Assembly: GCA_002269645.1 (NCBI GenBank)
Contig: NIVC01002379.1
Span: 62,001 to 126,000 of the forward strand
DNA: 64,000 nt
DNA from: Macrostomum lignano
Taxonomy: Eukaryota
Direction: 5' to 3'
Shown: in pieces, positions 28,001 to 48,813 of the stretch
Layout of the letters: each line of letters starts with the position of its first letter
Numbering within the stretch: the first letter of the stretch is position 1
The notes under the pieces: generated by a model
The model's input: only the letters and a program-made list of their open reading frames with translations
Told to the model about the DNA's origin: nothing
Databases searched by the model: none
Translations under genes and position numbers: made by a program

Positions 28001-28218
28001 AAAACCACGATGCGTACGAGCCAGGTGTTCAAAAGTAGCCAGTGAAACTTTTGATCGCTGAGCAAAGACAAAAACACATACAGAGACAATTTTTCACACA
28101 TTTTGAAGAAAATCTGTTATTTCCAATGAAACTATTTGAATACAATTTTTACGAATTAATTCAAATATAAGGGATAGGGACACAACCCCATCAAACTGGG
28201 CCGCCGTCACTTGCTATC

Positions 28219-28565
28219 AGTAGTAGGTAAAAAGACGCTTCTAGACCCAGAACCCCTATTTAACATGCTGATTTGAAGGGCTAGTGGGGGGACACGAGGG
28301 GGTACTAAAAAAACACATCTAAATACCCTTTACCCCCCTTAAACACACTACCTCCCACTACCTCCCATTAACACCACCAACTCACACAAATCACACAATA
28401 TTCACCCATATTCCCAATAACACACCCTATCACAACCAAACAATCCCCTCGCGTCCCCCCATTAATAGCCCTTCAAATCATCATTTTCAATAGGTCTGAT
28501 CTAGAAGCGTCTTTTTACCTACTACTACTTTATAACCCCAGGCCGCGCCGCAGGCGCGTAGGGTC
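28219..28565 (+). repeat. Left TIR (347 bp) containing an internal inverted copy of the terminus
   Basis: Reverse complement of 48372-48718; no mismatch found on manual comparison. Confidence 0.95.
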
Positions 28566-30489: not shown

Positions 30490-31449
30490 ATGGACACAGT
30501 TAATGACGAAAAACGGCTATATTTTATAGGAGAAATTGTAGATACTTTAAATCTAGACGATAATAAACATAGTCACGCAATGTTAAAAAGATTGGATCGC
30601 TTAGGCAAAAAATTTGACTACGACATCAATACATTTAAACTTGCTGCGAAATATGCACAAGAAGGAAGACCAATATCCTTTAAGAATCGCGGTAGAAACT
30701 ATAGGCTAACAGACTCCGATGTGAAATTTTTATTGGAGACTCACACTAAAAAGGACGGCGGGCTGTTACCTATTCTACCAATTCTTTTAGGACTTGGGGC
30801 AGCTGGAGCAGCTGGTTTAGCAGGAAAAAGAATTCATGATAACATAAAACAGTTAGGAGAATTAAAAGCAAAAGAAGGGGGTATATTACCCCTCGCAACT
30901 TTGCTCCCAATAATTTTTGCAGGAATTGGAGCAGCTGGAGGAGTCGCTGGAGGAGCGGCTGGAATTGCAAAAGCAGTAAATGACAAAAAAGCTGCGGATG
31001 AAAAAGCCAAAAGAGAGGCCGAATTTCAAAGACAGCAAATAACACAGGACGCACAATTCAAACAAAAACTTATAGATACAATTAATAGTAGCTCAACAAC
31101 AGCAGAACAAAAAAGAAATGCAGAAGCTAAATTAGCAGCTGGAAAAGGTTTAATTTTAAAAGGAACGACCCAAGGAAGCGGAGTTGTCGCAGATAAACTA
31201 TATGAGTTTGGGCAAACTTTAGAAAAAACGGGCGAGAAAGCTAAAGGATTTTTTGACAATATTGGAGCCAATTTTAGACCTGCGGTTCAGAAGATTTTTA
31301 ATAAGTTAGGAAAAGATTTTAACATAATCGAAAAACATGACGGAAGTGGTCTATATCTCGAAATGAGGCCAAAAGCAGGTTCAGGAATCTTCTTAAATGC
31401 AAACGTTATGGGCAGCGGATTACTGTTACCGAAAGCAAATCTCGAATAG
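30490..31449 (+). CDS. Polinton putative core protein with two adenovirus pX-like hydrophobic segments, 319 aa
   Basis: DGG|LLPILPILLGLGAAGAAG and EGG|ILPLATLLPIIFAGIGAAGGVAGGAAGIA, plus several GSG motifs. Confidence 0.75.
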   Translation: MDTVNDEKRLYFIGEIVDTLNLDDNKHSHAMLKRLDRLGKKFDYDINTFKLAAKYAQEGRPISFKNRGRNYRLTDSDVKFLLETHTKKDGGLLPILPILLGLGAAGAAGLAGKRIHDNIKQLGELKAKEGGILPLATLLPIIFAGIGAAGGVAGGAAGIAKAVNDKKAADEKAKREAEFQRQQITQDAQFKQKLIDTINSSSTTAEQKRNAEAKLAAGKGLILKGTTQGSGVVADKLYEFGQTLEKTGEKAKGFFDNIGANFRPAVQKIFNKLGKDFNIIEKHDGSGLYLEMRPKAGSGIFLNANVMGSGLLLPKANLE

Positions 31450-31535: not shown

Positions 31536-34500
31536 ATGGAATCAATTTTAGCTCAAATCGACAACCCAGAACTTAGAGCGCAATTAATAGCTCAAATCGA
31601 AGCACAACGAATTGCCGATAGGGCTGAAATAGAAGCTAGAGTTAGAGCAGAAAATGAAATACGTTTAGAAAGACAATTAAATGATATTGATAATCCTCAA
31701 CAACAAAGACAAAATGTAGCTGAAGTAATAAATATAGATATTGATATAAATACTGATTATAAAGAATATTTTAAAAAAATGAAAGATAAATTAAAGATCA
31801 TATTAGATAATTATACTACGAAACCTAATAACAAACGACAGCCAATTAAGTATAAAATAGAAATTGAAACAGAATTTAAAAAACCAAGTATGATTAATGC
31901 AAATTCAGAAATTGAAGCAATAAATACCTTTTCACAAGAATCATATAAGACACTCCTATCAATGAGAAATTATGACAACCAATTTAATCAAATAGAAGCT
32001 GAGTTTGATGAATGGATAGATAAAATGACAGAAAACGGATCAGGATTCATTTTTGTATCTTGTAACTCAGTAATAGTAAAGATAGTTCCAATTGAAATTC
32101 TTAAAGGACGATCACACATGGATCCTGGATTTAAATCACCAATGATAATAAATCCTGATAATAAAGATGATAAGTGTTTATTATGGTGTTTATTAATTCA
32201 TAAGTATCACAAACAAGTAAAATCCCACACTAATAAAATATATAATTATAGACAATATGAGGATGAAATAATAATGAAAAACATATCATACCCAGTAGCT
32301 ATAGATGATATATATAAGATTGAAAAAATGAATGGGTTAAATATTAATGTGTTTACAATTGAAGAACCAGAAGATCTAGAAGAAATTAAAACTGATAAAG
32401 AATGGTATAAGAAAAGATGTTATTTAGTAAAGCCAGCAACAGATATAACAGCACCTGATCAAATCGACCTTTTGTACATACAGAATGAAAACAATACTCA
32501 TTATATATACATAAAGGACATTAATTCCTTTTTAAGAGAAAATAGAAATAGGATGTTATTATGTAGAAACTGTTTCACATTTAAAAAAACTGAAACAGCT
32601 CTTAAAAACCACCAAAGGTTTTGTTTGGATCACAAATTTACTAACGTTGTTATGCCCGATGAAAAAGAACAAATCCTAAAGTTCCAACAACATTATATGG
32701 CAATTAAAAAACCAATAGTAATATATGCTGATTTTGAAGCAACAAATGTTCCCTTAAAAGAACCGCCGACAGTATCTGATGGTGAATGTACAAAAAAATT
32801 AGCACAACAGTTCCCAAATAGTTATTGTATATATGTACACTCCGTAGCTGATAATATATTTAAATCAAGGATGTTTACTTACCATGGTAAGGATGCCGCA
32901 AAACACATGGCAGAAGAATTAGTAAATGTTTTTGAATTTATTCAAAATCAATATGATAAGTTATCAAAAAATATTAATATGACAGATAAGGATAAAGAAG
33001 ATTATAAAAATGCAACAAATTGTTTTATGTGTAAAAGGGCTATAAGTGGGAGATATAAGATACGAGAGCATTGCCATCTAACAGGAATTTATCGTGGGGC
33101 AGCATGTAAATCATGTAACGCAAAAGAAGGAAAAGGATGTAAGGAAATACCAGTATTTTTTCATAATGGTTCCGGATATGATTTTCATTTCTTAGTTAGA
33201 GAATTGCTTCATTTAGGTAGAGATGAATATGAAGTAAATATATTACCTAAAACATCAGAAAATTACATATCAATAACATATGGTAAAAAATACTCCCATC
33301 TAGTTTTTCTAGACTCCTTGAGGTTCTTATCAACCTCTTTAGCTAATGTAGTTTCATCATTAGTTCCAAAACCATGGGATTTAGAAATAGTAAAGAAAAA
33401 CTTTCCAATCTTATTGAATCGGTTCAAAAAGGAAAAACTATCCGAGGAAGAACTAATGCTATTAACTCGCAAGGGCATCTATCCATATGAATATGTAACA
33501 TCTGAAAAGGTATTTAATGATACTCAACTACCCCCAATTGATAAGTTTTACTCAATATTATCACAATCAAATATAACCGAATCGGATTATGAACACGCTC
33601 AAAAAGTATGGAAATATTTTAATTGTAAAACATTTAAAGATTATCATAACCTATACCTTAAAGCAGATGTTCTCCTATTAGCTGATGCGTTTGAAAACTT
33701 TAGGAATCATACATATGAGAATTTTAAAATTGATCCAGCATATTGTTTCAGTGCACCAGGATTAACATGGGCATGTGGTTTGAAATATACAGATGTTGAG
33801 ATTGATTTACTAACTGATCATGATATGTTGTTAATGATTGAGAGAGGAATTCGAGGAGGATTCTCAGGGGTACTAGGAGATAGATATACTAAAGTAAATA
33901 ATAAATATCTACCAAATTATAATAAAAAAGAAAAATCATCATATGTATTATATCTAGATGCAAACAATTTATATGGTGGGTGTATGAAACAAAAATTACC
34001 AATAGCTGATTTCCAATGGGAAGACGATCCAGATTATTACAAAAACATTCCCGAAGGAAGGGGATGTATCGTAGAAGTGGATTTGCAATATACTCGGGAA
34101 GCAAAAGCAAAAACATATAAATATCCCCTAGCTCCAGAGCATTGTTCAGTTAATGAAGACGATTTATCACAAACACAAAAAGATTACCTCAAAGCGGATA
34201 ATACAAAACATCTAGCAACAAAAAAGTTAATATTAAATTTACATGATAAGAAAAACTATGTAGTGCATTATAAGCTTCTACATTTTTATGAAAAGCAGGG
34301 ACTAAAAGTTACAAAAGTACATCGAACAATATCGTTTATTGAGGAAGAGTGGTTAGCTAAATATATCGACTTTAATTCAAATCAGAGACAGTTGTCAAAA
34401 ACAAATTTTGAGAAAGATTATTGGAAATTAATGAATAATGCTTTTTATGGAAAAACGGTTGAAAATATTAGAGATAGAACCCAATTCCATTTAGAAAAGG

Positions 34501-35498
34501 ATATTGATAAAGCAAAGAAATATTTCTCAAAACCTAATTTTAAAGACTTTATAAAATTTGATGATAAGTTTATGGGAATTCATATGAGAAATAAAACAAC
34601 AAAATTTCTTAAACCAATCTTTATTGGAATGGTAGTTTTAGATTTTGCAAAGCTGGTAATGTATGAATATTATTATGATGTTATAAATAAAACTTGGCCA
34701 GATAACTATCCAATATATGCAGACACCGATAGTTTGGTATTTAAGGTTGAAACTCCGGATGTCTATAAAGACATGGAAACAATTCAGGATACATTGGATA
34801 CATCCGACTATCCTGATAACCATCCCTTAAAATCAAATAAAAATAAGAAAGTTGTACTTAAAATGAAAGATGAATTAAATAGCAAAATCATAACCGAGTT
34901 TATAGCAATAAGATCAAAATGCTATGCATTTAAGGTTTTAGGACAGGAGGGAGAGGTAAAAAAAATAAAAGGGGTATCAAGAGCAGCAGTAAAAAAGATA
35001 ACATTTGATGATTATAAAAACGTACTTTTAGATTATCTTAATACAATTGAAAATTACCATGCTCCACAATATCGATTAAATTCAGATAAGCATCAAATGT
35101 ATGTCATCGAGACAGATAAAAAAACATTAAATCCTTATGATGATAAAAGGTATTTAGATAATATAATTAAAACATATCCATATGGTTTAAAAGAAGAAAT
35201 TAAAAACATGCAAAATGATAAAAAACAAAAAGAGGATATAATAAATAAATATAAAGAATACATTGAGTCAATAAATAATTATTATTATGATTGTGATTGT
35301 GAATCCGATTGCGAATGCGAATATAATAAATTTTTAGAATATGAAAAAGATATTGATAAATATTATGAAACATTTCCAAAAGAACTTAAAAAAATAAATA
35401 AGGACAAAGCATTGGATAACTGGAAGAGACTAACAGAAGGATTACTTAAGCTACATACTGATCGGGTCTGTAAAAAACTAAAGCATGTAATTGTTTAA
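31536..35498 (+). CDS. polB: Protein-primed family B DNA polymerase (pPolB), 1320 aa
   Basis: Exonuclease motifs YADFEA and FHNGSGYDFHF; polymerase motifs YLDANNLYG, KLMNNAFYGK and YADTDS; uninterrupted ORF. Confidence 0.97.
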   Translation: MESILAQIDNPELRAQLIAQIEAQRIADRAEIEARVRAENEIRLERQLNDIDNPQQQRQNVAEVINIDIDINTDYKEYFKKMKDKLKIILDNYTTKPNNKRQPIKYKIEIETEFKKPSMINANSEIEAINTFSQESYKTLLSMRNYDNQFNQIEAEFDEWIDKMTENGSGFIFVSCNSVIVKIVPIEILKGRSHMDPGFKSPMIINPDNKDDKCLLWCLLIHKYHKQVKSHTNKIYNYRQYEDEIIMKNISYPVAIDDIYKIEKMNGLNINVFTIEEPEDLEEIKTDKEWYKKRCYLVKPATDITAPDQIDLLYIQNENNTHYIYIKDINSFLRENRNRMLLCRNCFTFKKTETALKNHQRFCLDHKFTNVVMPDEKEQILKFQQHYMAIKKPIVIYADFEATNVPLKEPPTVSDGECTKKLAQQFPNSYCIYVHSVADNIFKSRMFTYHGKDAAKHMAEELVNVFEFIQNQYDKLSKNINMTDKDKEDYKNATNCFMCKRAISGRYKIREHCHLTGIYRGAACKSCNAKEGKGCKEIPVFFHNGSGYDFHFLVRELLHLGRDEYEVNILPKTSENYISITYGKKYSHLVFLDSLRFLSTSLANVVSSLVPKPWDLEIVKKNFPILLNRFKKEKLSEEELMLLTRKGIYPYEYVTSEKVFNDTQLPPIDKFYSILSQSNITESDYEHAQKVWKYFNCKTFKDYHNLYLKADVLLLADAFENFRNHTYENFKIDPAYCFSAPGLTWACGLKYTDVEIDLLTDHDMLLMIERGIRGGFSGVLGDRYTKVNNKYLPNYNKKEKSSYVLYLDANNLYGGCMKQKLPIADFQWEDDPDYYKNIPEGRGCIVEVDLQYTREAKAKTYKYPLAPEHCSVNEDDLSQTQKDYLKADNTKHLATKKLILNLHDKKNYVVHYKLLHFYEKQGLKVTKVHRTISFIEEEWLAKYIDFNSNQRQLSKTNFEKDYWKLMNNAFYGKTVENIRDRTQFHLEKDIDKAKKYFSKPNFKDFIKFDDKFMGIHMRNKTTKFLKPIFIGMVVLDFAKLVMYEYYYDVINKTWPDNYPIYADTDSLVFKVETPDVYKDMETIQDTLDTSDYPDNHPLKSNKNKKVVLKMKDELNSKIITEFIAIRSKCYAFKVLGQEGEVKKIKGVSRAAVKKITFDDYKNVLLDYLNTIENYHAPQYRLNSDKHQMYVIETDKKTLNPYDDKRYLDNIIKTYPYGLKEEIKNMQNDKKQKEDIINKYKEYIESINNYYYDCDCESDCECEYNKFLEYEKDIDKYYETFPKELKKINKDKALDNWKRLTEGLLKLHTDRVCKKLKHVIV

Positions 35499-35805: not shown

Positions 35806-35965
35806 TTTCTTATAAAAAATTTAAACTTATTCGGGGTCATCCTCCCAAACCGAAGCCAATTTTACAGTCCTATCACTCTTTTTATTTTTTGCTTGTTTTA
35901 GTTTAAATTGCAACCCACCCTCCATACTGTATTTCCATTTTTAATCTAAAAAAATAACAAAAAAA

Positions 35966-37983
35966 ATGAAAGACATTTACGAATGTAAAAAATGTAATGT
36001 GCGCATGCATAGAGGGCAAACAGCAAACGGAGATATACGGGCCGACTTGGGGCCTCTCGCCTAGAACGGTCCGTTGGATTTATACCGGCATCATCCGGCC
36101 CAGTATCACATACGCGAGTCTCATCTGGACTAGCGTGCTGGAGCAGAAGGCCGCCCGTCAGCGGCTGTACCAGCTTCAGGGCAGCATTTGCCGTGCCATC
36201 ACAGGTGCGTACCCGTCCACCCCTTACGAGGGGCTGAACACTATCCTTAACCTACCTCCGCTTCACCTATTTATTAGGGCGGAGGCTATGAAGTCTGCCT
36301 CCCGGCTTATCAGAGATAAAACGTTAAATAACGCGCCCTCTGGCTTTATGCCAATGAAAACATTAATCCCGCATATGGACTTTGTCCGCCGCGACCTTAA
36401 CAACATCCACATGGACCTGGGCAATGTGGATAGTCGACCTCCCGCCCTCAACATCAGGAGGGGCTTCAAGACCGCCATCCCTGGCCGAGACAACATTCCG
36501 CTGGATGTCGGTGTGAACCGGCGCAGCCAGGGCATTCACTGCTTCACCGACGGCTCGCTGTTCAACGGCCGCGCTGGAGCGGGTATTGCCATTTTCCACG
36601 AGGGTAAGATGCTTCTCCAGGAAAGTCTGCACCTCGGTGAGAACACCTCAGTTTTCCAAGCTGAAATTTGCGCCATTGAGCAGTGTGCCCAGCAACTATT
36701 TCAGGCGAACATTAATAATTTTGACATTAATTTCTACACTGATAGCCAAGCTGCTATTAAGGCCTTAACCACTGAGAATATCTCCGCTGCTACAGTATCT
36801 CAATGCCACCGCAGTGTGCAATCTCTCTCAGTCCTTAACAGGATTAGAATTATCTGGACACCTGGTCACAGCAACATCCTGGGCAACGAGCTCGCGGACT
36901 CTCTCGCCAAGGAGGGCAGCAACCCAGACGGCAACCACCGTCTGATGAGGCTACCCACCCCCAGGTCGCAAGTCACCCGCCATATCAACAGGTGGCTCCA
37001 TCAGCAGCACCAGCTCCACTGGAACAGCTGCACCGAGTACAGGCAGAGCCGCTCTGCCATGCCTAACCTGAACAGGAAAGTCTCTGATTATCTGATTTCG
37101 CTTAACAGAACCGACCTCAGGGAGATGTGCATGGTCCTAACCGGCCACGGATTCTTCCAGAGACATATATCGTTGCAAACCGGTTGCCCTCCCACCTGTC
37201 CCTTCTGTGGCATAGGAGAGGAGACCGCGGAGCATCACGTCACCTTCTGCCCTTACTTCAACAAGGCGCGGCACAAATACCTCGGCCACCCCCAGCGGAT
37301 GGACGAGCTGACCACCGCGGACAATATCCGAGACCTCCGCGCCTTCGTCCGGGACTCCGGCCGGATGAGGGTCGCCGATGCCTCCACTGCGGACCTGCCG
37401 ACTACTGGCGGGGACTGGGCGCACCCCCAAGGCTAATCCTTGTGCTCTTTTACCTTGGGGTTGCGATAGGGGCCTCGCGGCCTATTCGCGGCGCCTGCGC
37501 CCCCCGTCAGTAGTAAGTAGTAAGTAAGTAAACGGAGATATATATCATATGTGTTATTCATGTTCTAAAATATATCAATTTGAAAAAATAAAAAAGATTG
37601 AAAATTCATATTACTATTTTAAAAACACAATTTTAAGAAATCTTACAAGAGACATTTCCGATCCAATTTTAATTCCGGGAAATAATGTTTATTTATATAA
37701 TAACTTTTTCCATTTAAATAAAGGAAAGGGATTAAGTTCGAAAGACTCCGAAAGGATTTTAATTTTAGTTGGATATTATTTTAATTTTCTTATGCGAGAG
37801 AATACAAAGTTTATAAGGATTGGTAACATACCTAACGAAATGTTATTGAAAAAGTCATTAGAATTTTTATGTATTGATAAAAAATTTAAACCTAGGATTA
37901 CAAGAGAGTTACCACTTTGGGAAGAATATATAACGTATGCATTAAATAAACTAAACAACCTGAAGTTCTACAGTACTTCCTGA
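35966..37983 (+). pseudogene. Polinton zinc-ribbon gene (170 aa when restored) interrupted by a LINE
   Basis: Removing 36038-37542 restores [33 protein letters not shown]... (CxxC-x17-CxxC) at an exact codon boundary. Confidence 0.85.
36038..37529 (+). mobile_element. 5'-truncated non-LTR retrotransposon with RNase H (LOA/Lian/R1-like), 1492 bp
   Basis: 13-bp TSD AAACGGAGATATA (36025-36037 and 37530-37542); WGLSP...[18 protein letters not shown]-terminus; RNase H motifs FTDGS / AE / TDS / GNELAD; CCHC knuckle; (TAAG)-like tail; GC-rich relative to the Polinton. Confidence 0.92.
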
Positions 37984-38960: not shown

Positions 38961-41006
38961 TTAGGTGATTTGAGTTTGTGGCTGTTCCAAATATGCGCTC
39001 GCAGCAAAATCATATCCTGCTGATGTGCTACCACAAACGGCTGCACCACGAATAAAATGTGCAGCATCCGATCCTCCGGTTCGAGCACCAAAACCCATAA
39101 GTGTTCCCGTTTTATCTAAATCTCCCCAAGTTCCGCTATCATATGTAAAAAAGTTTTGCCCAATTAACGTATACACTTTAGTTGAAACATTGAATGTGCT
39201 TATTTGATACCAAACTCTTTGATTAAGAATATTAATTTCAAAAAAGTGCCAATCACCATTATCAATATTAGCATAGGTTATAGTTTGATCTGCGTCATTA
39301 AGAACATCATTACGAACCGTAGCTCCGTCTGATTTTACATTACTCCATAGAACTCCAACTCTGTCATGCCATTCACTAGCAAACACTATCAAACCCGCGT
39401 TGGTTGTTAATCCAGATCCAAATTCCGTTGTTGGACGTTGGTGACAGTATGCATAAAACCAAACAGCGTCAGCACCATCTCCTGTAGTATTAGCAACTCG
39501 GAAATAGAAGGAGGCGGATATATTACGAAAATGGGTGAAATTAAATTGTAACGCTCCAGACCGACCCGATGCTTCATCAGTAATTCTAGCACCATTTTGA
39601 TAATCTATATAAGAAGCATCTCCAACAAAACTTCCTGTTGGAAAAATATCGCCGGCGGTGGTTGGGTTTTGATACCCAGTCCAATTGCAAATTACGGGCT
39701 CGTACAAAGCGGCATCAATTGCAGGTATTCCATCCAATTTTATTTTATCATTAAAAGACATTCGGCCATCCGCCGTTGGTGTTACTCGCGTGTCAACATA
39801 ACCTTTAGTAACAACAGAACTGTTATCGTTTATATTAGAGACATTGGTGATCGTATTGGAACCCATATCAATTGATTGATTAACTACTCCCAGATTTAAA
39901 TCAATAATTGTAAAAGTCTGCCTATAAATCTGAAAGGTTGACAGGCCGGGGTTTGTAGCACCCGAAGTTGATGTAAGACAGAACAATCTGAAATATGAAT
40001 ATGTTTTATCAAAATTTTGTGTGACATTAATTGTTTGAGTTGAGTTATTTATTTCTACAGAACTATCCGCAGGTATTAAAACATCCCAGCTCGTATTGTC
40101 ATTACTTCCTTCAAATCGCCATGATGCTGGATGCTCGGTTGATGGCGACGGTCTTCCACGTAAATCAATTTTATAACACATTATTGCAGATGGACATTGA
40201 ACCTGAATCCAATAATCGGTTTGTGTATTATTGGTCGCCCAATCTGTTGCATTATCTCCATCAAAAGCTTTCCAGCTTGCAAAATCGGTTGTATTAAATG
40301 CTGTGCTGGCTGTAATTGCAAAACCATTTCCACTCCAATCTGACATAGTAGGTATGTGGCCGGTTTCAACCGTTTGGAATCGATCCTGTTTTGGTGTTCC
40401 ACCTCCAACTATATTATCAACTTCGGTTTTGGTATAAGAATCAGCAACATTCCGTTTCAAATTTAATGAATTATCAACTTCGGTTTTGGTATAGGAATCG
40501 GCTATGTTCCGTTTCAAATTTAATGAATTATCGACTTCGGTTTTGGTATAAGAATCGGTTATGTTCCGTTTCAAATTTAATGAATTATCGACTTCGGTTT
40601 TGGTATAAGAATCAGATATATCTCTTTTCAAATTTAATGAATTATCAACCTCTGTTTTGGTATAAGAATCAGATATATCTCTTTTTAAATTTAGGGAATT
40701 ATCGACTTCTGTTTTGGTATAAGAATCAGATATATCTCTTTTTAAATTTAATGAATTATCAACTTCGGTTTTGGTATAGGAATCGGCTACGTTCCGTTTC
40801 AGATTTAGTGAATCATCGATTTGAGTTTTAGTATAGGAATCTGCAACGTTTCTTTTTAAATTTAATTTATTATCAATTTCAGTTTTTTTATAACCTTCAT
40901 CCTCATTAATATATCGATTATCTCCGAATGTAACACTGATGCCACCAGATGTGCCACCACCAGTACTTGTTGTTCCGTTCCATGAGGGTGTTCCAGAAAA
41001 TAACAT
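38961..41006 (-). CDS. Fibre/receptor-binding-like protein, 681 aa: 8 x 19-aa repeats, a discoidin (F5/8C)-like domain and a ConA/legume-lectin-like domain
   Basis: YTKTEVDNSLNLKRxxxDS repeats; WKAFDG...WIQVQ...WRFEGSND...YSYFRL; VVTKGYVD fibre-type motif; C-terminal GADAVWF...WHFFEI...GFGARTGG. Domain calls are by eye. Confidence 0.75.
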   Translation of the reverse strand: MLFSGTPSWNGTTSTGGGTSGGISVTFGDNRYINEDEGYKKTEIDNKLNLKRNVADSYTKTQIDDSLNLKRNVADSYTKTEVDNSLNLKRDISDSYTKTEVDNSLNLKRDISDSYTKTEVDNSLNLKRDISDSYTKTEVDNSLNLKRNITDSYTKTEVDNSLNLKRNIADSYTKTEVDNSLNLKRNVADSYTKTEVDNIVGGGTPKQDRFQTVETGHIPTMSDWSGNGFAITASTAFNTTDFASWKAFDGDNATDWATNNTQTDYWIQVQCPSAIMCYKIDLRGRPSPSTEHPASWRFEGSNDNTSWDVLIPADSSVEINNSTQTINVTQNFDKTYSYFRLFCLTSTSGATNPGLSTFQIYRQTFTIIDLNLGVVNQSIDMGSNTITNVSNINDNSSVVTKGYVDTRVTPTADGRMSFNDKIKLDGIPAIDAALYEPVICNWTGYQNPTTAGDIFPTGSFVGDASYIDYQNGARITDEASGRSGALQFNFTHFRNISASFYFRVANTTGDGADAVWFYAYCHQRPTTEFGSGLTTNAGLIVFASEWHDRVGVLWSNVKSDGATVRNDVLNDADQTITYANIDNGDWHFFEINILNQRVWYQISTFNVSTKVYTLIGQNFFTYDSGTWGDLDKTGTLMGFGARTGGSDAAHFIRGAAVCGSTSAGYDFAASAYLEQPQTQIT

Positions 41007-41016
41007 TTTTTACTGT

Positions 41017-41490
41017 CTATTTTATAGAATCTAAAATAGCCCTAAAGTCTTCGGGTCTTTCCTTCGAGTTATTAATTTTATATAAAAAATATAACGCCGC
41101 TTGCCCGCAATAACTTTTATCAAATGTTTGAAATTGTTCGTGATGATCTCCACATAAACGATTTTTAGTATGATTAAATTTATCTTTTATTTCCTGTAAC
41201 GGAGGAAGCGCGTATGAATCAAAAAAATAAACAAGTTTAGGTTTTGAATAAACTGCTGACCAATGAACACCGTTTTCTTTTGTTGTTTCAATATTAACAA
41301 TGTAAGATCCATATCTTGGTAAGTCTTTTATCTCATCCCGCATAACACATCTAAATGGTTTTATTTTTAACTGCCGCGCCCAATTTGTTAATTCGATATT
41401 GCTTGTTGTGTCTGTTCCATATCTTTGTTTGAACCCGCCCCACGTTAGTGATGGCGAGGACTCTGTCCGTCTGTCCCAACTCATAGTCAT
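41017..41490 (-). CDS. Adenain-like (C5/Ulp1-fold) cysteine protease, 157 aa
   Basis: GVHW, FFDSY, Q and YCG catalytic arrangement typical of Polinton proteases. Confidence 0.9.
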   Translation of the reverse strand: MTMSWDRRTESSPSLTWGGFKQRYGTDTTSNIELTNWARQLKIKPFRCVMRDEIKDLPRYGSYIVNIETTKENGVHWSAVYSKPKLVYFFDSYALPPLQEIKDKFNHTKNRLCGDHHEQFQTFDKSYCGQAALYFLYKINNSKERPEDFRAILDSIK

Positions 41491-42515: not shown

Positions 42516-43277
42516 TTACTCCTCGTCCTCATTATCTTCTTTTATCAAATTTGTTAAGATTCGATTTCTTCTTTCTAACCTAGGGTTGACATATATGTGT
42601 TTGTATTGACTATCATCCCAAATTTTTTTACACATACTTTTAAATGGTTTTGTATCCAACCCCGGATTAAATCTAGCGTGTATATTTTGTAAATCATAGT
42701 CATCTAAATCAAACATTACACAACAGCTAGCATTCTTTTTTATAATCGATTCTAATTCTCTAAAGGATTGAGTAAGATAAAAAGCTCCAATTCCATCTCC
42801 TCTACCACTAACAAAAATTTCTTTTTGCAATTCTTGATCTCCGTCATTAATACAATCGTCAAAAATAATTAGTGTTTTATCATATTTAGGAATTTTGTCA
42901 TAAGTTAATCTGTTTGATATTGTAATTGTTGGAGAATTGTTGTCTATATTTTCTGGATCTTCTGCCGTTTTTTTACATAAATCCTCAATGTCTGTTAGTT
43001 TAAATCTTGGTTCATCATCGTCCTCATATTGCTCATATGCTCTTAACATTCTAAATAAGATATCTTTTTTTAATTTGTTTTTTAATCCGTGTTTAAGAAA
43101 TTCATAATATTTTATTCTAGGTTTGTTAGTATAAATTATTAAATTATTATAGTCTAACATTCCATCGGTTGTTAACAAGTCATAAACAAAGTGGGTTTTT
43201 CCTTTGCCCGATCCACCAATTACTAAACAAAGAAAAGGATCATTTGGAAATATTTTATAATGTTTTGCTTTTACCAT
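42516..43277 (-). CDS. A32/FtsK-like genome packaging ATPase, 253 aa
   Basis: Walker A GGSGKGKT, Walker B LIIFDD, and R...IGAFYLTQ. Confidence 0.93.
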   Translation of the reverse strand: MVKAKHYKIFPNDPFLCLVIGGSGKGKTHFVYDLLTTDGMLDYNNLIIYTNKPRIKYYEFLKHGLKNKLKKDILFRMLRAYEQYEDDDEPRFKLTDIEDLCKKTAEDPENIDNNSPTITISNRLTYDKIPKYDKTLIIFDDCINDGDQELQKEIFVSGRGDGIGAFYLTQSFRELESIIKKNASCCVMFDLDDYDLQNIHARFNPGLDTKPFKSMCKKIWDDSQYKHIYVNPRLERRNRILTNLIKEDNEDEE

Positions 43278-43297: not shown

Positions 43298-44779
43298 CTA
43301 ATCTTTATCTACGGGCGCATCCCGAACAACGGTTCCGTCGGCTTTAGCAATTGATATATATTCCTCTAGAAACAATACGTGGGCGTCTAGTGCCTGATTA
43401 CCGGTTTTATTAATCTCTAACATATAATTCAAACCAACATTGGCTACATTTTCTTTCTGTGCAGTTAGATCAAAAACAACTACTGGGTGAATGTTTAGAA
43501 ACTCCGTGGGTGTGTACTGAGGAACAGCATACGCTTCATTTTTGGTATAATCTTGATAATATTTTATAAAATCATTAACATTATTATTTGCTATGTTTAG
43601 ATTTAAGGGCTCTTTAACAGGATAATATTGATCATCAACCTGCAGGCGGATATTCTGAACATTAAACTCGTTAATAGCTGAAACCGCGTTGTCGGTTGCA
43701 GTGGCTGCCTGAGCTGCTACATCCTCTGATTGAAGCCAATATAAATCCCCGTTTGCTCTTTTACTCCTTCTATTTGTTATTTTAAACCAAACAAAAATAT
43801 ATCTCACCCGACGTTTTGATATCGTTATCTGCCACTGAAATGAATCCTGATTGTTGTTAATGGTTCGCATAAAGTGGCGCCGATTCAAATAAAATATTTC
43901 TTGATCAACCATTATCTGCTTATTAACATGTGCTAAAAGAGGCGCCGTTAGCTCTAGTTTTGGTACGACTAATTGAATTGATGCTATACGAATTGCGATA
44001 TCGGTTGAAATTGAGGTTCCATAAAGTATCCTAGGCTGATATCCACCAGATATTTGCAACTGTACCCCAAATTTTAATCCTTTCCATACCCGATTTGGTG
44101 AGAAGAACCCAAATAGTGGAAAGATTGAAAAGTCTTGCTCATATGCGCTTGCTGTGGTTAAAACCGCTACTGGGAATTTATTCTGACGATCTATAAAACC
44201 GGTATTAATATCTTTTGTGTTAGTCATGGTGGTTACAACTGGAACTATATTGGTATTAAGATAAGCTATAAGGGCTGCGGTATCTGCGCCGGCTGCATTT
44301 TGTACATTAGGGAAAACTACTGCTTGTCCATTACCCTTATCAGGCATCCACCCAACACTATCACCAACTTGTTTTGATAAATAAGTATAATTTAAATGTT
44401 TCAAAACTCCATTAATCTCTGCTGGGTTTGTTGATGTCTCAACCTCGGCTCCATTAACAGTTAGTTGAGCTTGGGAAAAACATTTATAAAACCAATCATT
44501 TTCTATAATAATTCCAGAACGATCTGGGATATCACCGGCTGCAAGAGCAGTTCCATCGTTTCTGGTATACAACCATCTAACGCGGAAAAACGCGTTTTTC
44601 ATATCTAAAACGCTGTCGCTTGCCCCAACGTCAAAAGTTACCGTTCCCGTAGTAAAATTGTTTGAATTATCACTTGTTGGTAGGGTATAATTTAAATCTC
44701 TTGCCCTGATCTCATTAATATACTGCCGGTGCTTTTTAAAATGAAATTTATCACTCCATATGGTTTTTGTTTCAGCCAT
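43298..44779 (-). CDS. Major capsid protein (double jelly-roll), 493 aa
   Basis: Size, beta-rich composition, position next to the ATPase, and Polinton-MCP-like patterns (FSQAQLTVNGAEVE; C-terminal VVFDLT). Confidence 0.85.
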   Translation of the reverse strand: MAETKTIWSDKFHFKKHRQYINEIRARDLNYTLPTSDNSNNFTTGTVTFDVGASDSVLDMKNAFFRVRWLYTRNDGTALAAGDIPDRSGIIIENDWFYKCFSQAQLTVNGAEVETSTNPAEINGVLKHLNYTYLSKQVGDSVGWMPDKGNGQAVVFPNVQNAAGADTAALIAYLNTNIVPVVTTMTNTKDINTGFIDRQNKFPVAVLTTASAYEQDFSIFPLFGFFSPNRVWKGLKFGVQLQISGGYQPRILYGTSISTDIAIRIASIQLVVPKLELTAPLLAHVNKQIMVDQEIFYLNRRHFMRTINNNQDSFQWQITISKRRVRYIFVWFKITNRRSKRANGDLYWLQSEDVAAQAATATDNAVSAINEFNVQNIRLQVDDQYYPVKEPLNLNIANNNVNDFIKYYQDYTKNEAYAVPQYTPTEFLNIHPVVVFDLTAQKENVANVGLNYMLEINKTGNQALDAHVLFLEEYISIAKADGTVVRDAPVDKD

Positions 44780-45503: not shown

Positions 45504-46012
45504 ATGGATAATACGATAAATGAATGTCTTTGTAAACCTATTTATGATAAGGTAGGTTCTGACAGAATACTAAATAAGATATTTCAAGATGATTTAATAA
45601 TTGCAAACCGTATTAAAACAATTCAAATGAGGCTAGGATATCTTTATGAATTATTAGCTATTGAACATTTTGGTTTTGAAAAAATTAAGAAAATTGATTT
45701 AATTCATACTGAAAGAAAAATTGCGTTAGAGTTAAAATCTTCTGATAACACAGATAATTCATCGAGTCGATTTAGAAATATTCAAAAGTTATTAGAATTT
45801 AAAAATGTTAATCCTGAATTTGAGTTATATTATATTTGCATTAATAATACTACTAAAGCCCCCCCGTACAAAAGGTATTTGATAATGGAGTTACATTGTT
45901 AACTGGGGATTTTGCTTTAAATTTTTTATATGGTGATCAATATTTGGAAATTACTAAACTGATAGAAACGTGTTTTTTAAAGATTAAAAATGAGCAATCA
46001 ATTAGTGTTTGA
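45504..46012 (+). CDS. PD-(D/E)xK restriction-endonuclease-like protein; 169 aa if one C is added to the C7 run at 45859-45865
   Basis: GYLYE...IDL...ALELKSSDNTDNSSS resembles Eco47II-type nucleases. The -1 frame continues 48 codons (VQKVFDNGVTLLTGDFALNFLYGDQY...) to TGA at 46010. Confidence 0.6.
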
Positions 46013-47585
46013 AGGAGGCTTGTTGGATATTCAAAAAGGATTAACAAGCTTACCGCCAATCTTTACTACTGGTAGGTATACAAATGAATTACACATTCCA
46101 GGGTACTCGTTTGCAGGTTATCCCGTGGCCTGAGTGGTAGAAGCAAAGCTACTGCTAGTCACTATTAGTGGCAACATCTCCAAATTGCGTGAAACCCGTC
46201 ATACAACTTCAAGTACCACTTCAGTTGAGAAATCTTCTGAAGGAACACAGGTAACTCCTGTTCCCAATGGTAAAAAGCTTGAAGACATGGTGGCAATGCG
46301 CAGCCAAGCTCCTAAGTATTTTAAATATAAGGAGAAGGTTCAGAGAGCAGACGGAGATGGGCGGTAATCATCGCCGCTTAAGGTGTGCTCCAGCCTCATT
46401 CGAAAGATTGAGGGTAAACTACCTGGGACTAGACTGGATTTAAGATTAAATCCTGACAATACTCCAAAATCTGATTCAATTCCAATAAATGGGATTGATT
46501 GGTTAGCATACTATCACGACTTAGCATATAGAGATGCTGACAAGAACCCTCCCGAAGAAGCGTTAAGATTAAAACATGAAGCCGATCAAAAAATGATTCA
46601 AGGATTAGATAACTTACAAGGCTTATCAGTAGGCCAGAGATTAACTAGGTGGATGGTTAAAAAAATTCTACAATCTAAAGTTAAATTTGGTTTAGGAATT
46701 AATTACAACCAACATGGTAATAATTGTGTCGAATGTTTGTTATTAAGTGGTAGTGGGCTAAGTTATGATAAGGCTAAGGTTCTTCATAAAGAATACCGAA
46801 AACCTAAATTTTATAGAAAAATCATGAACTTCAAAAAGAATGAAATTTGGTATGCTGATTTAATGTCGATGCCAAATGATAAAGGATATAAATATATTTT
46901 AACAATATTAGATGGTTTTACTCGCTACGCGTGGGCTATTCCTTTAAAATCCAAAAAGGGAGAGGTGGTTGCTGCTGCTTTTAGAAGTCTTGGAGAAAAA
47001 AGCGAACGGTTGTGTGTTGACGAAGGAAAAGAATTTTACAATCCTCACATGTATAAATTGTATCATTTTGAAAAAGGACAAGAAAGGAAAAAGGACGCGA
47101 ATGGGGAGTATATTAATAAAATTTATTCTATTTATGGAGAGAGTAAAAACGCATTAATAGAAAGATTTAATAGAACTTTAGGTAAGAAATTATGGTTTCA
47201 GTTTAGTCTTAATGGTAACCAAAAGTGGGTAAAAATATTACCAGACGTCGTAAAAGATTATAACAATTCATATCATTCAGCTATAAAGATGACTCCTCAA
47301 CAAGCTTATAACAATCCTGAAAATGTTAAGGTTACTTTTGGAGATTTTGAAAAAAAGAAAACTAAAGGTTTTAAAGTTGGTGATTCTGTTTATATCTATA
47401 AATGGAAAGATAAGTTTGAAAAGGGAAGAAAAGGATATTGGAAAATAAGTGAGAAATTTACTATCAGTAAAGTTTTAAATACAAATCCCACAACCTATAT
47501 CATTGCTGATAAGGATGGTGAAGAAATATTGGGCTCATTTTATGAAAACCAGCTAATGCCGGTTTCATTTCAATCCGTTACTTAA
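45990..47585 (+). CDS. Parvovirus-type PLA2 domain fused to a retroviral-like (rve, DDE) integrase; exons 45990-46118 and 46422-47585, 430 aa
   Basis: Joined exons give ELHIPGYSFAG|PGTRLDLRL...PINGIDWLAYYHDLAY...HEAD (PLA2), then WYADL...ILDGFTRYAWAIPL...VDEGKEF...IERFNRTL...YNNSYHSAIKMTP (integrase), with no stop between the two domains. Confidence 0.9.
46119..46421 (+). ncRNA. Group I intron (IC1-like) ribozyme, 303 nt, no internal homing endonuclease
   Basis: P1 CAGGU/GCCUG with a U.G pair at the 5' splice site; P3 CAUCUCC (46175)/GGAGAUG (46353); P4 UGCGUG/UGCGCA; P5abc with A-rich bulge; P6; P7 G-A-GAGCA/UGCUCC; P8 GGCGGU/AUCGCC; P9 with GAAA loop; P9.0 AG/CU; P10 with the 3' exon CCUGGGA. 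Confidence 0.92.
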
Positions 47586-48371: not shown

Positions 48372-48718
48372 GACCCTACGCGCCTGCGGCGCGGCCTGGG
48401 GTTATAAAGTAGTAGTAGGTAAAAAGACGCTTCTAGATCAGACCTATTGAAAATGATGATTTGAAGGGCTATTAATGGGGGGACGCGAGGGGATTGTTTG
48501 GTTGTGATAGGGTGTGTTATTGGGAATATGGGTGAATATTGTGTGATTTGTGTGAGTTGGTGGTGTTAATGGGAGGTAGTGGGAGGTAGTGTGTTTAAGG
48601 GGGGTAAAGGGTATTTAGATGTGTTTTTTTAGTACCCCCTCGTGTCCCCCCACTAGCCCTTCAAATCAGCATGTTAAATAGGGGTTCTGGGTCTAGAAGC
48701 GTCTTTTTACCTACTACT
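48372..48718 (-). repeat. Right TIR (347 bp) with an internal terminus copy beginning at 48408
   Basis: Reverse complement of 28219-28565. Confidence 0.95.
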
Positions 48719-48813
48719 GCTATCATATTTATGTCATTCCGCGCCTTTCTTCTTTCAATTGTACAACTCATGATAATGTCAGTCACAAAATCCACAGAAG
48801 ATGACGCAAGTGA

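Follow-up and report, generated by a model that had tools for sequence, protein, structure and literature searches.

The element described here raises the question of how a phospholipase A2 (PLA2) and a DDE integrase came to share a single reading frame split by a group I intron, and of what becomes of the interrupted gene and of its joined product. The window, that is, the whole stretch of DNA analysed, covers 64,000 nucleotides of the Macrostomum lignano genome. From the computed anatomy of the gene, its insertion site, the family-wide fusion, the intact catalytic residues, the purifying selection and the conserved ribozyme pairings we infer, with moderate confidence, that in vivo the intron is spliced out by its own activity, and that the joined PLA2-integrase is packaged and cut at the motif KVKFGLG by the protease of the element.

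A long inverted repeat at each terminus, ends of the form AG...CT and target-site duplications of 6 bp characterise Polintons, or Mavericks. The element that holds the gene has these three features, together with an rve integrase and an A32 ATPase, and is a Polinton/Maverick (Table 1). Its polymerase domain, capsid and protease had no Pfam or PDB match, and the expected motifs are present in the ORFs; within the PolB-like ORF Pfam matched the nuclease alone, and comparison of the polymerase and the protease with the PDB yielded nothing useful. An endonuclease VII insert in PolB is known from some nematode, oomycete and insect Polintons, as far as the accessible text of the sources goes. The protease was identified by its motifs and by 35% identity to its counterpart in locus L051, without a library match, and its family label is one that we presume. 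A 99.9% identical copy of the element lies at a different site, on contig C283, with a 6-bp duplication of its own and an intron that is A-ended like that of the window; the lineage has thus moved recently, with an integrase possibly supplied by another copy. The window copy contains an RNase H-bearing retroelement fragment (35936-37526) that is missing from the C283 copy, and a fibre-like ORF (38961-41009) combines 19-residue repeats with a discoidin (F5/8 C) domain. The genome is that of an animal, with 86 Wnt matches as opposed to none in 14 control genomes. Its genes occur in two to four near-copies, so the copy counts given below include redundant haplotypes.

Table 1. Features of the element and of the PLA2-integrase gene, in window coordinates.
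Feature	Position	Strand	Basis or remark
Polinton/Maverick, 20.5 kb	28219-48718	.	5'-AG...CT-3' ends, 6-bp target-site duplication
Target-site duplication, 6 bp	28213-28218 and 48719-48724		Flanks the Polinton
Left terminal inverted repeat, ~350 nt (354-nt arms)	28219-28565	+	Arms 99% complementary
Right terminal inverted repeat, ~350 nt	48372-48718	-	Arms 99% complementary
Predicted core protein	30490-31449	+	Two pX-like hydrophobic segments after GG, five G-x-G motifs
PolB-like ORF, protein-primed, with endonuclease VII insert	31536-35498	+	Polymerase motifs read directly
Predicted maturation cysteine protease	41017-41490	-	H, D, Q, C motifs read directly
A32-type packaging ATPase	42516-43277	-	Pfam Pox_A32 over cut-off
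Predicted major capsid protein	43298-44779	-	Lead only (Atlas)
Free-standing nuclease-like ORF, directly upstream of the fusion gene	45504-45902	+	Eco47II-like, E 1.5e-4, under cut-off
Exon 1, 43 codons, ends GYSFAG	45990-46118	+	AAAATG start context, N-terminal GG motif, first half of PLA2 calcium loop
Group I intron of 303 nt that lacks a homing-endonuclease ORF	46119-46421	+	Intronless siblings, Rfam
Terminal intron base A (group I norm, G)	46421	+	
Exon 2, 387 codons, begins PGT (whole span)	46422-47585	+	
Rest of PLA2 domain in exon 2	46422-46676	+	PGT, D-x5-HD-x2-Y helix, second Asp
YHD and HEAD	46512-46520 and 46575-46586	+	Within the PLA2 part
KVKFGLG, predicted protease cleavage site	46677-46697	+	Family-conserved G-x-G / G-G motif
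LSGSG, second candidate site	46743-46757	+	This clade alone; LSGGG in many siblings
Retroviral-type DDE integrase	46782-47585	+	D 46857, D 47019, E 47160

Joined, the two exons form one frame of 430 codons; read through without splicing, the gene would meet a stop 4 codons into the insert and give a 47-aa product. The calcium loop, the HD..Y helix and the second Asp that mark the parvovirus-type PLA2 of PF08398 were all found, and these PLA2 residues, like the D, D and E of the integrase, are invariant or nearly so in a 74-member alignment. Phospholip_A2_4 (PF08398) matched an intronless sibling with an E of 5.5e-8 and 33.4 bits (cut-off 23.9), and Pfam rve matched exon 2 (E 6e-8). In the PDB, a profile of the family matched foamy-virus integrase with an E of 2e-12 and, at a weak E of 0.014, parvovirus VP1. 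By its motifs the first domain is predicted to be a phospholipase A2. The initial annotation had described a 430-aa two-exon frame with PLA2 motifs and a DDE integrase, and coordinates, Pfam and alignment all agree with it, the spliced form being a prediction. Neither an HHCC zinc domain nor a chromodomain was detected in the exon 2 integrase; among the 74 family members the former is found in none and the latter in 12.

The fusion is family-wide and inherited, and is no local mutation. We compared 102 distinct sibling loci, after removal of 8 duplicate loci and 5 stretches of context; these were chosen by protein similarity, so the sample is biased to intact copies. The initial annotation had named a stop between PLA2 and integrase in the siblings as a sign of a local mutation, and no linker stop occurs in any of the 102. 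In 90 loci the frame runs on for 370 codons or more past the RLD motif; a stop cuts it short in the integrase of 10 others and in the PLA2 of 2. A survey for N-terminal PLA2 domains on integrases, likewise proposed there, found PF08398 and PF00665 together in 74 of the 120 homologues listed among 475, a tally counted by hand, and three ESM Atlas clusters with both domains have 184, 111 and 72 members. Both halves are under strong purifying selection: in 81 colinear copies the PLA2 part of exon 2 has a pN/pS of 0.05-0.07 and the integrase one of 0.11-0.13. The fusion is still the design of one lineage, for among 30 viral loci located with the alignment one is fused, nine have a separate PLA2 and 20 have no PLA2 in the DNA examined. 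A second PLA2-integrase family, about 59% identical, is present in the same genome (L081, L347-L353).

In the accessible text of PMC8502044, PLA2X is a gene of its own in Alpha adintoviruses and Polintons, and a role in entry has been proposed for it (PMC8502044, PMC5803895). The present element is like those with the PLA2X of Alpha adintoviruses or the Sf Maverick CAP in that a parvovirus-VP1-type PLA2 occurs beside integrase, protease, ATPase and capsid genes (PMC8502044, PMC5803895). However, whereas PLA2X as described in these portions has a C-terminal pX-like part, here the PLA2 is fused to the integrase, and the pX-like segments are in a separate gene, that of the core protein. The window integrase also differs from that of an adintovirus, as defined by Starrett and Buck, in having no C-terminal chromodomain. 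Within the accessible parts of the Polinton literature, including PMC5803895, PMC3671162, PMC4642659, PMC7805220, PMC11131425 and PMC12567637, we found no PLA2-integrase fusion and no animal Polinton with a group I intron; such a fusion might be mentioned in subscription papers, in Repbase or in bioRxiv supplements. Fused proteins are already present in databases, though we found no published description of them.

The insert that splits the calcium loop has the features of a group I intron. A genome search with an uninterrupted homologue retrieved three intronless siblings (L021-L023), each with one continuous ORF in which the Gly and Pro codons adjoin at this point, and this defines the ends of the insert. 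Rfam recognised it as a group I intron with bounds of 46109-46412 (71.3 bits, E 4e-16), and the P1-P9 core could be traced, with P1 (U.G 46118:46128 at the 5' site), P3, P4, P5abc, P6, P8 and P9. P7 (46345-49/46386-90) keeps the canonical G-C binding pair, and the P9.0 pairs (46392-93/46419-20) directly precede the terminal base; the terminal G of group I introns is absent. The end given by Rfam, a G that is in frame and would add three residues, was rejected, as it falls inside P9 and the intronless siblings do not have those residues. Spliceosomal removal was rejected as well, since none of 12 in-frame GT-AG pairs restores the exact loop. The pairings are well kept: across 56 distinct type-A introns, the type of the window (41 of them A-ended), the P1 U.G, all seven P3 pairs and all five P7 pairs are present in 56/56. 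Four P2 pairs change jointly (40 vs 16) and the other helices show further two-sided changes, in counts that include related copies more than once. The contigs listed from four sequencing runs, three guessed to be RNA and one of unknown kind, show no joint across 46118/46422, with 80 further loose ends outside the listing; the intron is covered in two of the three guessed-RNA runs, and the contigs come mostly from diverged siblings, so this result says little about splicing either way. Judged by its conserved core, the intron likely splices itself out, which would rejoin the calcium loop at the Gly/Pro boundary.

What is unusual is the animal nuclear setting and the fact that the majority of the introns are A-ended. 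A 2013 review restricts nuclear group I introns, in its accessible text, to the rRNA genes of microorganisms (PMC3679873), whereas here dozens of intron copies interrupt a protein-coding gene in an animal genome. Protist Polinton-like viruses offer the nearest likeness, with small RF00028 introns of 309-376 nt in nuclear-integrated virus genes; as far as that source's accessible part goes, those introns occur in a few protist groups and near the capsid gene, unlike the present ones with their animal host, PLA2 calcium loop and mostly A ends (PMC12220804).

The terminal base, on which the initial annotation did not remark, may bear on whether the window copy can make its enzymes. Among the 75 type-A copies the last base is A in 56 and G in 18, with one misregistered. 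In the accessible portion of PMC8146996 the terminal G of group I introns is called universally conserved and catalytically important, with the coral ND5-717 intron as an exception; that A-ended intron ligates its exons exactly, at lower efficiency (PMC6545197). The hexacoral intron is obligatory and mitochondrial, with a fixed A, unlike the introns described here, which are optional and nuclear-integrated and in which A and G segregate among near-identical copies (PMC6545197, PMC8146996). The terminal A would probably lower the efficiency of splicing in this family too. We consider it unlikely, if worth weighing, that A-ended introns splice poorly or never and that the window copy is one of a set of non-autonomous elements mobilised by the protein of G-ended or intronless copies. 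The importance attached to the terminal G, together with a P7 that retains its canonical binding pair, would fit such a loss, and 18 G-ended and 3 intronless copies exist as possible donors. On the exon-2 tree the intron classes are intermixed, a pattern suggestive of recombination or homing, and integrase made by the other two kinds could mobilise A-ended copies; pN/pS is similar in all intron classes of the 81 colinear copies, a comparison that this mixing blurs. However, A is the majority form, genes with an A-ended intron are intact in 48 of 56 cases vs 16 of 18 with a G-ended one, the A-ended introns retain the core pairings, and the coral intron splices despite its A. Near-identical natural introns with A and G ends offer a clean test of how well the second step of splicing copes when the terminal G is lost.

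The initial annotation had proposed that splicing gates both functions. This stands in so far as both enzymes depend on removal of the intron; an evolved switch is a different matter, as the intron is absent in the three siblings and from most homologues. Sorted by insert, the 102 loci comprise 75 with the type-A intron, 19 with a second type at the same boundary, three with none and five that could not be parsed. That the intron is held by 94 of the 97 classed loci, mostly in its A-ended form, might suggest that the terminal A holds back both enzymes until splicing is allowed by conditions or by a host factor, all the more since the reduced splicing of the coral intron is discussed as regulatory in the accessible text of PMC6545197, and since relatives may restrict their integrase by a frame change at the PLA2-integrase joint (see below). 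We find an evolved switch improbable, because the intron is optional, at least three intron types share one site, insertion into a conserved active-site codon is the behaviour of a selfish intron and the high frequency is compatible with homing. In the second family of the genome five of six parsed copies are intronless, and the remaining one (L349) has a related, G-ended group I intron of 85 bits in which type-A and type-B modules are mixed. Optional presence and several types at a single conserved codon are what a selfish intron would show, and we regard this one as most likely a mobile parasite that exploits the conserved calcium loop. Regulated gating forms no part of the explanation that we prefer.

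The source of the intron was also sought. Four weak phage matches were obtained; the best viral introns were 69-73% identical over about 190 nt, and none of the 122 pattern loci had a PLA2 or integrase match. In distant relatives Rfam found no group I intron in the 18 metagenome loci scanned (of 79), blanks that count for little, as Rfam missed four type-A and two type-B known introns in one scan and three and two in another. The upstream nuclease ORF is a possible candidate for mobilising the intron. This slot holds either the Eco47II-like ORF or, in many siblings, an HNH-like one (for example L021:921-1490), labelled from its motifs, with no Pfam match; both nuclease types accompany type-A introns, with no clear link between nuclease and intron. 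The N-termini of several proteins (P0274, the P0007 cluster, P0003, P0043 and P0080) look like the translated 3' end region of a group I intron that continues into PGT. The translated core of the window intron is matched by P0274, so a related intron is likely present at the same site in a lineage that is 47% identical.

Type-B inserts (L041-L044, L087-L089 and others, 19/102) are 326-328 nt long and lie at the same codon boundary as type A. They have P2, P2.1 and P5abc in common with it and a different group I-like core that Rfam missed. Their 3' boundary is ambiguous: depending on the end chosen, the calcium loop would lose two residues or gain one. The exon codons behind the insert are complementary to its 5' end. 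A type-A size class of 331-337 nt also exists (L040, L090-L094 and others), and contigs show extra letters near 46268.

The fused protein itself carries a motif that points to processing. In 74 proteins the PLA2 ends with K-x-K-(L/F)-G, whose last Gly is invariant. Next to this Gly stands x-G in 60 of them, G in seven, both in two and neither in five, and a linker of 8 to 78 residues comes behind. Adenain cleaves (M/I/L)xGx|G sites, a rule that LSGSG fits and KVKFGLG, with Lys at P4, does not. The initial annotation had singled out LSGSG as the cleavage site. The motif is indeed there, but a second motif of this kind occurs in only 5/58 homologues, which rules it out as a family-wide site, vs 69/74 for the KVKFGLG type; LSGSG may be an extra site within this clade. 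GG|X and GX|G are the cleavage sites of the mavirus protease described in the accessible text of PMC6048507. The same 69 of 74 proteins carry such a sequence in the variable linker. G-x-G and G-G motifs also cluster in the predicted core proteins of the element. We regard KVKFGLG as the better site on all three grounds: it is kept across the family, it matches the mavirus rule and it recurs in core proteins. The core protein of the window (Adeno_PX, E 0.022, under the cut-off) is likely a substrate of the same protease.

Mavirus virions contain an integrase and two pieces of a hydrolase, and this, with the specificity of the mavirus protease, makes a protease-processed virion polyprotein the best reading of the fusion, and by analogy a likely one (PMC6048507). 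The two systems would have in common a clan CE protease of GG|X and GX|G specificity and an rve integrase that enters the particle with a processed hydrolase, on the side of the present element by prediction; they differ in that the integrase and hydrolase of mavirus are separate genes, its hydrolase is of the alpha/beta type and is no PLA2 (PMC6048507). Under the polyprotein reading the precursor would be packaged and cleaved after G-x at KVKFGLG, and the PLA2 would serve entry and perhaps bring the integrase into the particle. A Polinton particle has never been seen, according to the accessible text of bioRxiv 10.64898/2026.06.19.733378; the widespread fusion, the conserved protease motif and the strong selection on PLA2 are hard to account for without a particle stage. 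The fusion also offers a direct test of Polinton protease specificity.

The protein might instead work uncut, with PLA2 standing in for the absent N-terminal zinc domain and G-x-G playing a structural part. The lack of HHCC throughout the family and linkers as short as 8 residues would suit this, as would the presence of the K..G-x-G motif at the end of free-standing PLA2X proteins, where it is perhaps part of the end of the PLA2 fold. Yet the swap of G-x-G for G-G at one invariant Gly mirrors the two motifs of a related protease, linker length varies tenfold, and integrases of the same type do without PLA2 in 29/30 viral loci, so that we find an uncut fusion doubtful.

Some relatives join the two domains differently. 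Parsing succeeded for 38 of the 79 metagenome loci, and in 27 of them both sides are intact; PLA2 and integrase are in frame in 17 of these, at -1 in seven and at +1 in three. A run of A6-A9 stands just behind the G-x-G motif in all ten shifted loci (L154, L156, L160, L165, L175, L180, L181, L183, L213 and L224) vs one of the 17 in-frame loci. No ATG precedes the first catalytic Asp in nine of the ten. If these frames are real, the integrase of such relatives would be made solely as a recoded PLA2 fusion, as in Gag-Pol, and recoding of this kind is a possible explanation of the frame change. Only 1/21 A-runs is followed by a folded structure with z below -2, and this, with the mixed shift directions, leaves slippage mutation or assembly error as further possibilities. 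The joint of the window has no A-run. In retroviral Gag-Pol the enzyme reaches the particle at the C-terminus of a precursor of the core protein and is freed by the viral protease. The likeness lies in such a route, predicted for the present element, and in the frame change at the joint of some relatives; the differences are that the element is DNA virus-like, that the window gene is in frame and that no stimulatory structure was found behind the A-runs. We put forward tentatively, as a rather speculative extension, that animal Polintons load their integrase as a Gag-Pol-like PLA2-integrase precursor whose dose is limited by A-run recoding at the joint in some lineages and, in the present one, by a self-splicing intron that its terminal A throttles. 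On that reading the intron would be a functional group I ribozyme within the mRNA of a protein-coding gene in an animal nucleus, and would occur naturally in A-ended and G-ended versions side by side. Frameshifts have been proposed in Polintons for the penton and the hexon-protease, the integrase not being included in the accessible text (PMC11071296).

On reading the sequence, an internal start may offer a further route to the integrase, at an in-frame ATG (46593) that heads a frame of 330 codons and shares its AAAATG context with 13 further starts in the element. It is very improbable, however, that integrase comes mainly from this start or from one at 46824 without need of splicing, since the Met at 46593 occupies a conserved position of the PLA2 helix (Met in 53 and Leu in 11 of 64), a start at 46824 would drop the conserved LHK helix, and the shifted relatives mostly offer no such ATG.

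In six other loci (L053-L058) a G-x-G motif and a lysine run mark the junction between a PLA2X and the protease gene, in a layout like that of the PLA2-integrase gene with a different enzyme. The joint is in frame in L057 and L058, at -1 in L053, L055 and L056, and at +1 in L054.
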